Assembly: GCA_017520825.1 (NCBI GenBank)
Contig: JAFXEX010000006.1
Location: 4,011 to 68,010, forward strand
Direction of reading: 5' to 3'
DNA: 64,000 bases
Source: Clostridia bacterium
GTDB taxonomy: Bacteria; Bacillota; Clostridia; Oscillospirales; SIG627
Shown here: piece by piece, positions 42,295-62,767 of the stretch
Position numbering within the stretch: position 1 is the stretch's first letter
How the letters are laid out: the number at the start of each line of letters is the position of its first letter
Notes under the pieces: generated by a model
Told to the model about the DNA's origin: nothing
The model's input: only the letters and a program-made list of their open reading frames with translations
Database searches by the model: none
Program-made: the position numbers and the translations under genes

Positions 42295-43467
42295 TTATCT
42301 CTCTTTGTTCTTGGGTGAAAGCATATACCAGAAGGAGCCCGAAAGGAATACAGAGGAGTAAAGACCTGCCAATATTCCTACGATGAGAGGAAGTGCGAAT
42401 TCCTTGATTGAATGTACTCCGAAGATATAAATCATACCTATTGTGAAGAGAGTTGTAATGGTTGTGTTTATAGAGCGCATAAGAGTCTGACGGGCGCTGA
42501 TATTAATTACCACGCCAAAGTCGGTTCTGCCCATTTTCTTACGGTTTTCACGCACACGGTCAAAGAGAATGATGGTAGCGTTAATAGAATAACCGAGAAT
42601 GGTGAGCATTACGGCAATAATGTTTGAGCTGACAGGTATGCCGAATACTGCGTATGAAGCAATTACGATAATTATATCGTGAATGAGGCAAAGAATTGAA
42701 GCGATAGCAGATCTGAATTCAAATCTTACCGTGATGTAAACCAGCATAAGAATAACGGCAATGACCGTTGCAACAACTGCAGAGCGCTTAATCTCGTTTG
42801 AAATTGAAGCACTTATTCTTGATTCTGCGATTACCTCAATCGGCTCTGTTCCACCGTAAGTTATTTCAACTGTTTCAAGCTCCTCGGTTGTTTCGTAAGG
42901 AGTTGTTTCAACTATTTCATCAGCAGTTTCATCTGCAGTTTCGTCTGCAGTTTCGTCTGCAGTTTCTTCAACTGTTTCGTCTGTGGTTTCGTCTGCAGTT
43001 TCGTCTGCAGTTTCGTCTGTGGTTTCGTCTGCTGTCTCGTCGGCAGTTTCATCTGCAGTTTCGTCTGTGGTTTCATCTGTAGTTTCGTCTGCAGTTTCTT
43101 CCTCTTCCTCAACCACGGGTGCGCCGTAGGCTATATTGAGAACGTTATAAACCTCCTCAACCACCTCGGGTGAAGCGTCGGCAGCCTTGATTATAACGCT
43201 GCTTGAATCGTCGCCCGACTTCTGAACGGAGGTAACGGTAATGCCGTCTACGGCATTTACCATTTCTCTGATGTTGTCAAGCTCTGCCTTGTCAAGAGTC
43301 TTGTGAAGGTCATACTGAAGGGAGATACCACCTGCAAAGTCGGTGTCAAAGTTGAAGCCGTTGATGAACATAAAGGCAACGCCTATAAGAATAACTGCGA
43401 TAGCAATGGAGAACCAAAGCTTACGAAGTCCTACTATTTCCATTTGTTCTTTTGTAATGAATTTCAT
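42295..43467 (-). CDS. secF: protein translocase subunit SecF with an acidic tandem-repeat insertion
   Basis: SecF N-terminus (KLWFSIAIAVILIGV..FDTDFAGG) and a C-terminal 6-TM SecDF domain. Carries an inserted (A/T)DET repeat block. Confidence 0.9.
   Translation of the reverse strand: MKFITKEQMEIVGLRKLWFSIAIAVILIGVAFMFINGFNFDTDFAGGISLQYDLHKTLDKAELDNIREMVNAVDGITVTSVQKSGDDSSSVIIKAADASPEVVEEVYNVLNIAYGAPVVEEEEETADETTDETTDETADETADETADETTDETADETADETTDETVEETADETADETADETADEIVETTPYETTEELETVEITYGGTEPIEVIAESRISASISNEIKRSAVVATVIAVILMLVYITVRFEFRSAIASILCLIHDIIIVIASYAVFGIPVSSNIIAVMLTILGYSINATIILFDRVRENRKKMGRTDFGVVINISARQTLMRSINTTITTLFTIGMIYIFGVHSIKEFALPLIVGILAGLYSSVFLSGSFWYMLSPKNKER
42917..43097 (-). repeat. 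12-bp tandem repeat (~15 units) encoding (T/A)DET(T/A)DET inside secF
   Basis: Unit GTTTCGTCTGCA (plus strand) repeated with minor variants. It produces spurious ORFs in other frames. Confidence 0.9.
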
Positions 43468-47069: not shown

Positions 47070-47101
47070 AAAAGCAAGACGAAAATTCGTCTTGCTTTTT
47101 T
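47070..47101 (+). terminator. intrinsic terminator of alr
   Basis: AAAAGCAAGACG-AAAA-TTCGTCTTGCTTTTTT. Confidence 0.85.
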
Positions 47102-47103
47102 AA

Positions 47104-47267
47104 TGCAGAATGCAAAATGCAGAATGCAAAATTATGGTTAATTTGCCCTTGGCAAATTTTCCTTATCGTTTGCGAAGCAAACATATCGCGTGTGAAACAC
47201 ATATCGCATTCCATTCGGAATATATCGCGTTGTTACAGACAACATATCGCGCATAACGCAGTTATGC
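47104..47267. repeat. terminator-linked heptad / word-hairpin array (element A)
   Basis: TGCAGAA TGCAAAA TGCAGAA TGCAAAA heptads at 47104-47131, followed by mini-hairpins. The hairpins are AATTTGCC-CTT-GGCAAATT, TTTGC-GAA-GCAAA, GTGT-GAA-ACAC, ATTCC..GGAAT, GTTG..CAAC and GCATAAC-GCA-GTTATGC. Four copies of the word ATATCGC separate them. Confidence 0.8.
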
Positions 47268-47272
47268 CCTTT

Positions 47273-55430: not shown

Positions 55431-55688
55431 CAAATGCAGAATGCATTAAAAAAGCAAGAGGAAAACTCCTCTTGACTTTTTACAGTTATATTCGCCATTC
55501 GGCGAGTTATATTCGCTAACGCAAGTTATATTGCTTCGCAGTTATATTCCCTTCGGGAGTTAAGGTTGATTTGCTCTGCAAATCTTCAATAATTGTAAAT
55601 TTCGCAGAGCGAAATTGTCCTTAATTGTGCATTGTGAATTGTGCACTGTGCATTATAAAAGCAAGAGGAATACTCCTCTTGCTTTTGC
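55431..55688. repeat. terminator-linked heptad / word-hairpin array (element B)
   Basis: TGCAGAATGCA, hairpin 55449-55483, then GTTATATT x4 (55485, 55506, 55525, 55541) separated by mini-hairpins (CGCC-ATTC-GGCG, TGC-TTC-GCA, TCCC-TTC-GGGA). These are followed by nested hairpins, heptads at 55621-55654 and terminator hairpin 55657-55686. Positions 55541-55688 are the reverse complement of 60012-60160. Confidence 0.85.
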
Positions 55689-55710
55689 TTTAGCCCAAAT
55701 ATGAAGCCGT

Positions 55711-55954
55711 AAAGGCGCACAGATTTGGAGATAAAATCGCGGAGTGCGAAGGCGTCGGCGTACAACGGTACGCCAGTCCGAGCAACACGCGAAGAAAATG
55801 AAATTTTTACAGATGGAAGAAAGCGAAGCTTTCTACCTTAAAAGACTTGTAACAATGAAGAAGTGTGTTCACGCTTTCTAACAGTCGCGAACACACTATC
55901 GTCAAAATATAATTATCATTTCATTTTCGGTTTTAGCCCAAATATGAAGCCGTA
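55711..55954. repeat. 244-bp direct repeat, copy 1
   Basis: Aligns with 56776-57019 with about 9 mismatches by eye. Contains internal hairpins (GGCGTAC-AACG-GTACGCC, GAAAGC-GAA-GCTTTC, GTGTGTTC..GAACACAC) and a long-range stem GAAAATGAAAT/ATTTCATTTTC. Confidence 0.9.
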
Positions 55955-55956
55955 AG

Positions 55957-56331
55957 CTATTTGTTGTTAATTATCCAATCAAGCAGGTCCTCGTAGCCCA
56001 TTTTTCCTGATGCAACGGCAAGTCCTACACGGGCAACGTCGTCTACAGTTGGTTTTATTTTTATACCGTTGACTTCAAGGAAGGTCAGAAGCACGTACAT
56101 TCCTATACGCTTGTTTCCGTCTACGAAAGCGTGATTTGAAATGAGAGAATAGCCAATCCTCGCACCCTTTTCCTCTTTTGTCGGATATAGCTCCTTGCCG
56201 TCAAAGGTTTGAAATGCCGATTCAAGGGCGCTGTCAAGCAAGGCTATATCACGAAGGCTTGGGTCTCCACCTGTTTCTTCGGTAATAAGCTTATGCAATA
56301 AAAGCACCTTGTCTTTGCTGAATTTTATCAT
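55957..56331 (-). CDS. doc: Doc/Fic-family toxin
   Basis: 124 aa with Fic motif HAFVDGNKRIG. Overlaps phd by 4 nt. Confidence 0.9.
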   Translation of the reverse strand: MIKFSKDKVLLLHKLITEETGGDPSLRDIALLDSALESAFQTFDGKELYPTKEEKGARIGYSLISNHAFVDGNKRIGMYVLLTFLEVNGIKIKPTVDDVARVGLAVASGKMGYEDLLDWIINNK

Positions 56332-56570
56332 TTTGCAAGCTCCTCAAAGGCGAGACGGTAACGGTTTAAAACTCTCATCGCCACAAAATCAATTTTTTCA
56401 TCGTCTGTCATTTCCAACGAGGTGTCATTTTCAAGGTCAATAAGCTTGTATTTGGGTTTGTTGTTTTTGAAAATGTATATTTCGCCCACTCTGTCAACGG
56501 CTCGGGCTACCTTTGAAAAATTCTGATTAGCTTCGGATATTGAAACTATTTGTTCTGTGTTTATTCTCAT
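56328..56570 (-). CDS. phd: Phd/YefM-family antitoxin
   Basis: About 80 aa: MRINTEQIVSISEANQNFSKVARAVDRVGEIYIFKNNKPKYKLIDL. The start was set at the ATG 7 nt after AGGAGG, because the ORF-track start lies inside the promoter. Confidence 0.75.
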   Translation of the reverse strand: MRINTEQIVSISEANQNFSKVARAVDRVGEIYIFKNNKPKYKLIDLENDTSLEMTDDEKIDFVAMRVLNRYRLAFEELAK

Positions 56571-56591
56571 CGTCATACCTCCTTTGTTTAT

Positions 56592-56620
56592 ATTATACAC
56601 ATATATTAGTATATTGTCAA
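56592..56620 (-). promoter_or_regulatory. consensus sigma-A promoter of phd-doc
   Basis: The minus strand reads TTGACA-17 nt-TATAAT. Confidence 0.75.
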
Positions 56621-56742
56621 CCTAAAATTTATACTAAATTTTGCCAATAGTCTAAATTTTGTGAATTCTAAACTGTGCATTAAAAGGCTTCATATTTAAA
56701 TTAGTTTAAAGTTGATAATTGAAAATGGAAAATTAACATTTA

Positions 56743-56772
56743 TTCTGCATTTTGCATTGTGCATTCTGCATT
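56743..56772. repeat. TGCAnnn heptad block (element C)
   Basis: The minus strand reads TGCAGAA TGCACAA TGCAAAA TGCAGAA directly after a T-run, the same arrangement as element A. Confidence 0.75.
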
Positions 56773-56775
56773 AAA

Positions 56776-57019
56776 AAAGGCGCGCAGATTTGGAGATAAA
56801 ATCGCGGAGTGCGAAGGCGTCGGCGTACAACGGTACGCCAGTCCGAGCAACACGCGAAGAAAATGAAATTTTTACAGATGAAAGAAAGCGAAGCTTTCTA
56901 CCTTGAAAAACTTGTAACAATGAAGAAGTGTGTTCACGCCTTATGATACTCGCGAACACACTATCGTCAAAATATAATTATCATTTCATTTTCGGTTTTA
57001 GCCCAAATATGAAGCCGTA
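56776..57019. repeat. 244-bp direct repeat, copy 2
   Basis: See copy 1. It ends 5 nt from the stop codon of the SLH gene. Confidence 0.9.
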
Positions 57020-60000: not shown

Positions 60001-60011
60001 GGAAAATAGAC

Positions 60012-60044
60012 AAAAGGCAAGAGGATTTTCCTCTTGCCTTTTTT
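60012..60044 (+). terminator. intrinsic terminator
   Basis: AAAAGGCAAGAGG-ATTTT-CCTCTTGCCTTTTTT. Confidence 0.85.
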
Positions 60045-60046
60045 AA

Positions 60047-60160
60047 TGCACAGTGCACAATTCACAATGCACAGTTAAGGATAATTTCGCTATGCGAAAT
60101 TTACAATCATTGAAGATTTGCAGAGCAAATCAACTTTAACTCCCGAAGGGAATATAACTG
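60047..60160. repeat. heptad / hairpin element D (inverted copy of the right part of element B)
   Basis: TGCACAG TGCACAA TTCACAA TGCACAG, then the long-range stem AGTTAAGG..CTTTAACT enclosing AATTTCGC-TAT-GCGAAATT, CAAT-C-ATTG and GATTTGC-AGA-GCAAATC. These are followed by TCCC-GAA-GGGA and AATATAAC. Confidence 0.85.
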
Positions 60161-60321
60161 TAAAAATCTGCTGTTTTGTAAACGAAAACATAACGTAAGA
60201 AAACCTCAACATACATTTTAACCCTTTACTTTTCACTGTATTTTGTGCATTTTAACTATTACATAAAATTTCGATTTATGGTAAAATATAGACGTAGATG
60301 TAAATATACGGAGGGAGTATT

Positions 60322-61687: not shown

Positions 61688-61918
61688 ATGAAGCAAGTTA
61701 ACATTAAGTTCAACACCATCGTTCAGATTCAGAACTTCGTAAACGACATGAGCCGTTTTCTTTCAGACGTTGACCTTACAAGTGGAAAATACGTTGTAAA
61801 CGCAAAGTCGGTTATAGGCGTGTTCAGTCTTGACCTTGCTCACCCCATCGGACTTACTGCCGAGGGCGTTGACGAGGACAAGGTAATTGAGGCTGTTAAG
61901 GACCTTATCGTCGAATAA
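61688..61918 (+). CDS. HPr-fold protein lacking the His15 phosphorylation site
   Basis: 76 aa. VNAKSVIGVFSLDL aligns with the HPr region KSIMGVMSLGV, but the His15 region is replaced by TIVQIQNF. Confidence 0.55.
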   Translation: MKQVNIKFNTIVQIQNFVNDMSRFLSDVDLTSGKYVVNAKSVIGVFSLDLAHPIGLTAEGVDEDKVIEAVKDLIVE

Positions 61919-61935
61919 AAATCAATAACTAAAAA

Positions 61936-61976
61936 AAGGGGCTGTAAAAACTCGAACAGAGTTTTTACAGCCCCTG
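61936..61976 (-). terminator. strong hairpin acting as an intrinsic terminator for minus-strand transcription
   Basis: 17-bp stem AGGGGCTGTAAAAACTC/GAGTTTTTACAGCCCCT. The T-run is present only in the minus orientation (A7 on the plus strand at 61929-61935). Confidence 0.7.
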
Positions 61977-62026
61977 ACTCATAGGAGATAGGAAAAAATG
62001 CTTCAGAATGGACACTGTAGATTGTT

Positions 62027-62379
62027 ATGAATTGATGCTGATGCATCATGAATTGGCTCTAGCCATGAATTCTCGCTTCGCTCCATGAATTGAAATTCTG
62101 CGAATTTCATTAAGGTAAAAAATGCAAAGCATTTTTATTACATAGGAAAATTGCATTAGCAATTTGCTTGTAACAAACAAAGTTTACCTATAAAATCGTG
62201 AGCGTAAGCGAACATCAGTTGCCGAAGTCGACTTTTTATTTAATTTTACAAAGCCCAAAGGCTTTGTTTCCGAAACGCACCGTAAGGTGCAATTCATGAG
62301 CCAAAGGCTCAATTCATGAAAGCCTTGCTTTCAATTCATGCCAACGGCAATTCATGGCGAAGCTCTGCTTCGCTTTTTT
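62027..62379. repeat. word-hairpin element E with complementary arms
   Basis: Left arm: (C)ATGAATT x4 at 62027, 62047, 62064 and 62084. Right arm: AATTCATG x4 at 62291, 62311, 62333 and 62349. Mini-hairpins sit between the words, and about 180 nt of further mini-hairpins sit between the arms. It ends in the plus-strand terminator GCGAAGC-TCT-GCTTCGC-TTTTTT (62357-62379). Confidence 0.85.
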
Positions 62380-62419
62380 GTATTTTTGACGGTCTGGACT
62401 TTTTTTACGTCTCCTTTTT

Positions 62420-62767
62420 CTATCCCTCAAGTCCGAGGCTGACCGAAATGGCGCTGTTCACCTTTTCCATGGTCTCGTCCTCAAGATGCCCCATTTTTTC
62501 CTTCAATCGTTTCTTGTCGATTGTACGTACCTGTTCAAGAAGAATAACCGAATTCTTTGCAAGCCCGAAACGGTCAGCCATAACCTCGATATGTGTGGGA
62601 AGCTTGGTTTTGTCAACTCGGCTGGTTATTGCGGCGGCTATTACCGTAGGCGAATGCTTATTGCCCACGTCGTTCTGAACTATTACCACAGGTCTTATAC
62701 CACCCTGCTCCGAGCCTACCACGGGACTTAAATCGGCGTAAAATATATCTCCTCTTTTGACTGTCAT
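62420..62767 (-). CDS. mazF: MazF/EndoA (PemK-family) endoribonuclease toxin
   Basis: 115 aa; [47 protein letters not shown] is near-identical in pattern to Bacillus EndoA. Confidence 0.95.

Follow-up and report, generated by a model that had tools for sequence, protein, structure and literature searches.

Element E, a gene-less Gut-1-like word array of a Clostridia genome, and the association of its family with PF05635 genes

Results

Element E and its genomic setting

The window, by which we mean the whole stretch of 64,000 nucleotides (64 kb) that was analysed from a Clostridia bacterium assembly, carries an intergenic element, here called E, between a convergent HPr-like gene and a lone mazF/pemK gene (Table 1). 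Comparison with a related strain in which the site is empty sets the start of the inserted block at 62009, slightly to the left of 62027, where the first-pass annotation had placed it.

Table 1. Features at the element E locus, in positions of the 64-kb window
Feature	Position	Strand	Basis
HPr-like gene	61688..61918	+	
Flanking 17-bp hairpin with T run	61937..61975	-	Terminator scan; outside the insertion
Element E, whole inserted block	62009..62373	.	Global alignment of the window with the empty-site strain L007
Left arm	62027..62115	+	Direct sequence reading and word search
Centre	62116..62276	+	Hairpin-rich remnant at the PF05635 ORF position of full-length copies (alignment A3)
Promoter-like site TTGTAA-17-TAAAAT	62168..62196	+	Consensus scan alone, 9/12 matches; weak evidence
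Right arm	62277..62355	+	Direct reading, word search
Outer hairpin GGCGAAGC-TCT-GCTTCGCT with T run	62356..62385	+	Terminator scan
mazF/pemK gene	62420..62767	-	

E had been described as four words on each of two arms, with nearly every spacer a different perfect mini-hairpin, and the sequence reads as described. On the left arm the ATGAATT words lie at 62027-33, 62048-54, 62065-71 and 62085-91 (+ strand), the second to fourth of them preceded by a C, and the spacers are GATGC-TGAT-GCATC, GGC-TCTA-GCC, CTCGCTTCGCTCC and GAAATTC-TGC-GAATTTC. The third of these had been read as a non-hairpin block and is corrected here, as it holds a 2-bp mini-hairpin, GCTTCGC (complement GCGAAGC); the block is kept as GGAGCGAAGCGAG in many homologues. 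The hairpin GCACC-GTAA-GGTGC opens the right arm, whose AATTCAT(G) words, at 62291, 62311, 62333 and 62349, are separated by the spacers GAGCC-AAA-GGCTC, GAAAGC-CTT-GCTTTC and GCC-AAC-GGC. At the inward end of each arm stands a fifth, degenerate word-like unit, which on the left is ATTAAGG (62109-62115). The left arm is colinear with that of a full-length homologue (L100) and of two ORF-less ones (L099 and L065), and the right-arm hairpin stems are homologous to stems of L009, L085, L088 and L098. All 7 exact matches to CATGAATT found in the window on both strands sit within the 330 nt of E; with 3.9 expected over the whole window, or about 0.02 per 353 nt by a Poisson estimate, seven are far beyond chance. 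E is the only ATGAATT-type copy of the window.

The outermost hairpin of the right arm, GCGAAGC-TCT-GCTTCGC, lies mostly (to about 62373) within the inserted block and, with the T run behind it, is an intrinsic-terminator match on the + strand. E is thus bracketed by two facing terminator-like hairpins, this one at 62356-62374 (+) and the other at 61975-61937 (-). The empty-site strain also has the latter, its 5-nt loop in inverted orientation, and read-through transcripts of mazF that cross E would be terminated there. In the centre, where neither an ORF nor a detectable ORF remnant was found, the promoter-like site picked up by the consensus scan points toward the right arm. An Rfam scan at gathering thresholds returned a tRNA as its sole match, with no rRNA in the 64-kb window and no family at threshold in E, in keeping with the earlier remark that the annotated features leave the architecture unexplained.

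Variation between strains

Strains were compared through contigs encoding identical MazF and HPr-like proteins. Identical copies of E were found in three of them (L001, L006 and L128), and a variant in three others (L002, L004 and L131), in which the stems are the same and the loops are rewritten (AAG to CGT, TTAC to TGC). In this variant the centre is about 130 nt shorter and two left-arm words have become ATAAATT, the right arm being intact; one arm of E is decaying in a sister strain. L007, with the same MazF, has an empty site, reading ...ACAAAAA joined directly to TCTGAAGCA..., with a block of about 365 nt missing. The presence of E is therefore polymorphic between strains. No target-site duplication longer than 1 nt is visible in this sole filled/empty pair (the window and L007), the junction of which falls in A/T runs. 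Most short-read contigs break off inside E.

A family of word arrays in gut Clostridia

A scan for three CATGAATT words in one genome per species gave at least 120 loci, mostly, among those listed, in Clostridia MAGs from ruminant and other animal guts (Acutalibacteraceae, Oscillospiraceae and Christensenellales). Eighty-three of the at least 120 loci listed (108 arms) have spacers that are all different hairpins and represent the E-type unit, four ATGAATT words separated by covarying G...C hairpins, which occurs solo or as an inverted pair; the remaining 37 listed loci are ordinary tandem repeats with identical spacers and serve as a control. The combination of identical words with non-identical hairpins is thus a trait of a family and not a one-off of E. 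Arrays of exactly 4 words dominate (109/191), with a word spacing between 12 and 27 bp. Of 449 spacers, 355 have G as their first base and C as their last; of 244 unique ones, 190 have a terminal stem of 3 bp or more, whereas shuffling would yield about 7. Internal mismatches occur in only 6 of 318 spacers, too few for choosing the strand from G-U pairs, an approach that we dropped.

When 55 arms are aligned, the words do not vary and the stems show strong covariation, with 95.6% of the cells paired against 70.2% in shuffles, and 219 double-sided changes against 64. Controls in which the partners were slid gave 15-54% paired cells. Helices 1-3 had entered through a pre-selection for stems of 3 bp or more; helix 4, to which no such selection applied, is 87% paired, with many double changes. 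No G-U pair was found in about 650 cells of helices 1-3. The loops on the AATTCAT strand are cGNAg, cGNNAg or gCTTGc and are asymmetric between strands (on the other strand, 0 GNRA against 18 TYNC and 3 GNA against 41 TNC). Stable DNA mini-hairpins would account for such loops as well as RNA does.

Where two arms are paired, the centre is usually only 25-30 nt, and that of E is unusually long; in many loci an arm occurs alone. Two to four copies per 8-kb locus were found in L081, L086, L052, L099 and L046, and in the first four of these near-identical copies lie within a single contig. The orientation of gene-less arms relative to neighbouring genes is unbiased, 20 running in the direction of the gene and 26 against it. 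Several solo arms have a terminator-like hairpin after them. Sister elements A, B and D have, in place of such an arm, four heptads directly in tandem with no hairpins between them.

Three ideas on how such arrays arise or spread were set aside. Elements B and D, with four words and one, had suggested a hairpin insertion with word duplication (CRISPR-like or footprint); the sharp peak at four words argues against it, D being explained more simply as a deletion between direct repeats. The spacing of one array per gene in L081 had suggested integron attC-like cassette sites, yet an integrase is lacking and a solo arm is unable to adopt the attC fold. As to carriage by phages, a scan of viral contigs gave 47 matches, mostly plain tandem repeats with identical spacers, of which only about 7 are family-like.

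Similarity to the Gut-1 RNA motif

Judged from sequence and layout, the closest known family to the arrays of E is the Rfam Gut-1 RNA motif (RF01706). Gut-1 was found only in human-gut metagenomes and was classed, on covariation, as a probable non-coding sRNA (Weinberg et al. 2010, PMC2864571); its consensus is GUGAAAU four times, separated by three hairpins, and its function is unassigned (PMC2864571). Both arms of E likewise hold four heptamers with three short covarying hairpins, and the loci of the family come mostly from gut bacteria. The Gut-1 seed alignment also includes members with tandem heptads and members with an inverted second arm (GUGAUAU x4 ... AUAUCAC x4). A permissive Rfam scan of the window gave weak matches only, the meaningful one being Gut-1 on the right arm of E (62270-62341, - strand, 19.1 bits, E-value 0.38, against a gathering threshold of 50 bits), and no Gut-1 match was obtained on the left arm. 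Sister element B (55483-55552) scored higher, with 29.5 bits, also below the 50-bit threshold. The low score of E, only about 19 bits, is due to its different word, AUGAAUU where Gut-1 has GUGAAAU or GUGAUAU. Gut-1 differs further in having been described as a single-arm, trans-acting sRNA of the human gut only. E is a new word-variant of the Gut-1 layout and itself a relic; the Gut-1 family is wider than recorded, passing from a human-gut curiosity to at least eight word types in many Clostridia.

Arrays and PF05635 genes

Complete copies of the element carry a gene of about 118 aa belonging to PF05635/TIGR02436 ("23S rRNA intervening-sequence protein", hereafter IVP). A Pfam scan was made of 145 ORFs flanking arrays, the 25 most frequent families being listed, and the top family was PF05635, with 9 members from nine different MAGs. 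These are 60-65% identical to the protein of L100, with 81% mean column identity, and tblastn lifts the count of array-flanking PF05635 genes to 12 loci. The gene lies between the arms in L100 and L036, the layout of L100 being ATGAATT arm, ATTAAGG, hairpin, RBS and ORF, hairpin, CCTTAAT, AATTCAT arm. In L098, L115, L126 and L133 both arms precede the ORF, immediately upstream of it; in L098 and L133 they stand between a consensus promoter and the ribosome-binding site, and the last word of such loci stands about 9-13 nt before the Shine-Dalgarno sequence. In L182 and L186 the arrays are upstream of the gene's promoter and not in the 5' UTR.

The association was also approached from the protein, with 66 metagenome PF05635 loci having at least 200 nt upstream. 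A word array lies within 330 nt upstream of the gene in 60 of the 66, compared with 4 of 193 control windows, and both arms with complementary words are present in 41 of the 66. The word differs between sub-families (ATGAATT, ATGATTT, ATGAAAT, GTGAAAT, TGAAATA, GTGATAT, ATGATAT, AGCTAAA and TGAAGTA), and in those 41 loci, across word types, the second arm always carries the reverse complement of the word in the first. The word also tracks protein similarity, the closest relatives having ATGAATT and more distant proteins the others; the AGCTAAA sub-family has five exact words. Bona fide Gut-1 matches hold the same place as the ATGAATT arrays: on human-gut metagenome contigs, matches above threshold (50-80 bits) lie 150-230 nt upstream of a PF05635 gene, on the same strand, in 16 of the 20 loci tested. 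Several Gut-1/IVP loci are directly downstream of 5S rRNA and tRNA genes.

The 2010 paper and the searchable part of its supplement give no protein-gene association for Gut-1 (PMC2864571), and no earlier description of the array-protein link was found in the later literature searched. The association of Gut-1-like arrays with PF05635 genes thus appears to be new, and it ties an orphan RNA motif to an uncharacterised protein family. PF05635/TIGR02436 is very widespread, its members turning up within rRNA intervening sequences, close to cas genes and as part of DGRs; we know of no function for it outside DGRs.

The IVP proteins match TIGR02436, and their profile matches PDB 2RLD (5 chains) with an E-value of 2e-34. 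IVP is a four-helix-bundle protein related to S23p and Avd, and members of the PF05635 family form homopentameric rings related to the Avd of DGRs (PMC4990558, PMC10053308), Xcc0516 being such a homopentamer (PMC4990558). The IVP proteins are not strongly basic (pI 5.8-8.8) and matched none of the PADLOC defence models. The Pfam scan of the flanking ORFs gave no DGR parts near the IVP genes, neither a reverse transcriptase nor template/variable repeats.

The position of E next to a lone mazF gene had also led us to consider it as a MazF decoy or type-III-like RNA antitoxin. We rejected this, as the arrays are found in unrelated settings, PemK does not recur among the flanking ORFs, and the steady partner is PF05635.

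E as a gene-less derivative

The + strand of E is colinear with the full-length L100 and with the ORF-less L099a, L099b and L065 (alignment A3), following the skeleton of arm, ATTAAGG, hairpin, (ORF), hairpin, CCTTAAT, arm. Compared with the complete copy, the ORF is gone, extra hairpins are inserted in the centre and the right-hand CCTTAAT is lost. The PF05635 gene, present in L100, L036, L098, L115 and other homologues, is missing from E, and tblastn with nine IVP proteins gave no IVP gene or remnant anywhere in the 64-kb window (best E-value 0.14), matches inside the arms of E being at chance level (E-values 3.9 and 9.5). E has the skeleton of a complete copy without its ORF, and a related strain lacks it at the corresponding site. 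It is therefore a MITE-like derivative, gene-less and non-autonomous, of a modular inverted-repeat element widespread in gut Clostridia. The first-pass annotation had overlooked both its membership in this large family and its descent from a gene-carrying element.

Folding of E and pairing of its arms

The folding energy of E is -117.6 kcal/mol for the + strand (z = -7.2) and -123 kcal/mol for the - strand (z = -6.8), neither value being reached by any shuffle. Its architecture is thus as non-random as the first-pass annotation had held. That annotation had also read the words of the two arms as exact complements, with the whole region able to zip into a ladder. The arms are indeed complementary and can form a stem as terminal inverted repeats: arm-arm pairing is present in the MFE structure of the + strand (-117.6 kcal/mol, compared with -90.3 for local pairs only and -105.3 when the exact four-rung ladder is enforced), a gain of about 27 kcal/mol over local folding within a single strand. 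In the ATGAATT sub-family, 52 of 169 word pairs (43 paired elements) are variant, and of these 52 only 1 is compensated. Complementarity between arms in homologues, which the first-pass annotation had made a test of its reading, therefore holds at the level of the sub-family and fails for changes of single words.

A ladder in which left words pair with right words in one RNA or ssDNA strand, with the mini-hairpins protruding, would give either a long imperfect stem that is processed, for instance by RNase III as in rRNA IVS, or a cruciform or replication barrier. The exact complementarity of E's arms, their energy gain and the z-scores near -7 on both strands speak for such a function, as do the at least eight word types in which the second arm is always the complement of the first, and the rRNA IVS with the same protein family, which use terminal inverted repeats cut by RNase III (PMC4990558). 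We nevertheless find both outcomes unlikely. Variant words go uncompensated, the left arm decays in a strain whose right arm is intact, many arms are solo, and pairing does not need all four words of an arm to be identical; moreover, rungs of 7-9 bp are short for RNase III. Nor are mini-palindromes of 3-7 bp long enough to form stable cruciforms. The ladder is physically possible and not a demonstrated function. Uncompensated word changes, solo arms, the decaying arm and the identity of the words point instead to the single arm, with its words and local hairpins, as the conserved unit, just as in Gut-1.

Discussion

We regard it as fairly probable that one joint explanation covers these observations, namely that E is a gene-less copy of a Gut-1-like element, the words of which are sites for an IVP pentamer on single-stranded nucleic acid. 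Each protomer of the homo-pentameric IVP ring would bind one word, and the words would be read in single-stranded form, most likely as RNA. The hairpins may fold out and bring the words side by side, similar to the hairpin-free tandem heptads of the sister elements; it is the hairpin-free arms of A, B and D that suggest this way of reading. In complete copies the array could control the gene in cis, as suggested by the last word lying so close upstream of the Shine-Dalgarno sequence, and gene-less copies such as E would be decoys, or only bystander 3'-end structures. If E were transcribed in full, its arms could pair into a long imperfect stem, like the RNase III-cut stems of 23S rRNA IVS. Reading by a homo-oligomer would explain identical words within an arm, a fixed number of them (four exact and a degenerate fifth, or five exact in the case of AGCTAAA) and free variation of the hairpins in length and sequence.

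Several observations count against this proposal. The link between protein and words rests on co-location and co-divergence, and common descent of a single unit would also yield both. The absence of G-U pairs in the stems speaks against an RNA version, and together with the loop pattern it is fitted at least as well by DNA hairpins or by a constraint on both strands. A cis-acting RNA is also at odds with the arrays placed upstream of the promoter in L182 and L186. The lack of strand bias among gene-less arms (20 vs 26), IVP proteins that are not strongly basic, a 64-kb window devoid of an IVP gene, and the absence of any mobility enzyme or clear target-site duplication among our results are further points on this side.

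In its general form, that Gut-1-type arrays are the cognate sites of stand-alone PF05635 pentamers, and that array and gene make up a self-contained selfish or self-regulating element which spread through gut Clostridia and left behind hundreds of gene-less copies, the idea is offered tentatively, as one we doubt somewhat more than we trust. If true, the array-gene element would be a non-ribosomal counterpart of the 23S rRNA intervening sequences, and three long-standing orphans, namely Gut-1, the IVS proteins and the IVS of rRNA, would receive a function from one mechanism. The value of E lies in being an entry point to this family, the array-protein link of which is directly testable.

The 23S rRNA IVS with an S23p ORF, known from Leptospira and Coxiella (PMC4990558), resemble the family of E in that inverted terminal repeats flank an ORF of the PF05635 family, in having ORF-less versions and in a sporadic distribution that suggests mobility (PMC4990558); the position of some Gut-1/IVP loci directly after 5S rRNA and tRNA genes is another likeness. 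However, E and its relatives occupy ordinary intergenic regions and not rRNA helices, E itself being inserted between an HPr-like gene and mazF and not in a 23S or 16S rRNA helix, and they have word-plus-hairpin arrays where the IVS have a continuous stem of about 28 bp.

For the binding proposed here, a precedent is offered by Avd, a homologous pentameric four-helix-bundle barrel that binds Spacer RNA: cryo-EM found all five protomers of the pentamer in contact with one RNA stem-loop through the same residues (bioRxiv 10.1101/2023.10.23.563531). Yet the target of Avd is a single 11-bp stem-loop and not a word array, and Avd is more basic than IVP (bioRxiv 10.1101/2023.10.23.563531). A looser parallel can be drawn from other ring proteins and serves as an analogy only. 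In B. subtilis the ring protein TRAP wraps RNA with 11 (G/U)AG repeats separated by spacers of 2-3 nt, so that identical subunits each read one short word in single-stranded RNA, as IVP might do. TRAP has no homology to IVP, and its spacers are short, with no looped-out hairpins.

Under the original Rfam/Weinberg reading, each arm would be a free-standing, trans-acting Gut-1-like sRNA whose four seed words are single-stranded. It would have no relation to the protein gene nearby and would act on other RNAs or titrate a host RNA-binding protein. The classification of Gut-1 as a probable non-coding RNA from its covariation (PMC2864571) is in line with such a role, and so are the promoter-like site in the centre of E, the terminator after its right arm and the terminator-like hairpins behind several solo arms. 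Even so, we give this reading little credence in either of its parts, given the fixed position of the arrays upstream of PF05635 genes (60/66), stems free of G-U pairs, the lack of orientation relative to genes, and the 25-30 nt centres of paired arms, which leave no room for promoters of their own.

A classical MITE, in which the words are transposase sites in terminal inverted repeats (as at the ends of Tn7, Mu and IS21) and PF05635 is mere cargo, seems to us just as improbable. Presence/absence polymorphism (the empty site of L007), near-identical copies within single contigs, the coexistence of gene-carrying and gene-less forms and assemblies that break inside the element are all features of MITEs. 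Nonetheless, no transposase and no other mobility enzyme was found among the 25 most frequent Pfam families of the 145 flanking ORFs, and the autonomous-looking copies encode the four-helix-bundle protein only. In addition, no clear target-site duplication was seen at the one empty/filled pair, word spacings of 12-27 bp do not keep a helical phasing, and binding of a transposase to duplex DNA leaves the covarying hairpin spacers and the strand-asymmetric loops unexplained.

Other short intergenic repeats invite comparison with the family of E, which is likewise short, multi-copy, hairpin-rich and polymorphic for presence or absence. BOX and RUP of pneumococcus, Correia and BIME/REP are modular repeats of this kind, which can provide neighbouring genes with promoters, terminators or RNase sites, and either a transposase (IS630-type, RAYT) is known or suspected for them or they have no gene linked to them. 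We know of none among them that has identical heptamers alternating with non-identical hairpins or an association with PF05635. At its own locus, the effect of E is probably small, amounting at most to a 3'-end structure and terminators for mazF and the HPr-like gene.

Sister elements within the window

Three further elements of the window combine a terminator hairpin, tandem heptads and hairpin-forming modules (see table). In sister element A, the heptads read AATGCAG/AATGCAA and the array is built of ATATCGCG x4, spaced by mini-hairpins that differ from one another. On the - strand this array word becomes GCGATAT, a word of the type found in Gut-1 (RF01706). Sister elements B and D are homologues sharing the terminator hairpin, heptads of AATGCAC x4 and a two-hairpin module, which is flanked by TTAAGG and CCTTAA in B, with CTTTAA replacing the latter in D. 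In B, this module is followed by AATATAACT x4 with hairpin spacers, and the Gut-1 match scored 29.5 bits against a gathering score of 50 bits. Only one word of the AATATAACT type was found in D versus four in B, which looks like the outcome of a deletion between direct repeats.

Repetitive and structured features discussed in the text (positions in the window unless a locus is named)
Feature	Position	Strand	Description
12-nt tandem repeats	42890-43100		GCAGTTTCGTCT-like, about 14 copies
Sister element A	47070-47270	+	terminator hairpin, four tandem heptads, hairpin, word/mini-hairpin array
Exact 19-mer	47273, 55690, 55933, 56998	+	TTAGCCCAAATATGAAGCC
Sister element B	55450-55686		
Direct repeat	55710-55951 and 56775-57016		~240 bp, two copies
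phd-doc operon	55957-56600	-	toxin-antitoxin
Element C	56739-56772	-	AATGCAN heptads x4
Sister element D	60010-60165		
Terminator hairpin loop	61954-61958		5-nt loop of 17-bp hairpin, downstream of HPr-like gene
mazF/pemK	62420-63060		gene and upstream region
c-di-GMP-I riboswitch	L195 1109-1300		two tandem aptamers

Toxin genes and neighbouring repeats

The phd-doc operon sits between the two copies of the direct repeat, each bounded by TTAGCCCAAATATGAAGCC; the window contains four occurrences of this 19-mer, all on the + strand. The arrangement resembles a cassette or a recombination module. Element C lies directly upstream of the phd-doc promoter, which has the consensus TTGACA-17-TATAAT.

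Close to element E, the terminator hairpin downstream of the HPr-like gene has a 17-bp stem that is almost constant, differing at one base in L007 (a related strain lacking the element); its 5-nt loop is inverted between the window and L007 (GAACA versus TGTTC, read on the same strand). No antitoxin gene was recognised in the ~300 nt upstream of mazF/pemK, where only a 43-aa TTG ORF and the inverted repeat AAATATATTGGG...CCCAATATATTT were found. Elsewhere in the window, the 12-nt tandem repeat run probably belongs to a coding sequence and seems to have no relation to the word/hairpin elements.

Related arrangements in other genomes

Arms built on ATGAATT, the word of element E, are joined in chains with additional modules at two loci: second-word arrays (GTGAAGTT x4 with hairpins) in L081 (1-4000), and plain tandem 7-8-mers (TAACTCC x6 and TTTGTCGC x4) in L026 (47-347). 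Moreover, L081 carries four consecutive small genes, each followed by one arm; three have no Pfam match and one matches DUF3885. 5S rRNA/tRNA gene clusters lie directly upstream of several units combining Gut-1 with a PF05635 gene (L192, L196, L206, L208 and others), a proximity that recalls the rRNA association of the PF05635 family. In L195, the PF05635 gene is flanked by Gut-1 arms, and the riboswitch aptamer pair is located downstream of the gene.
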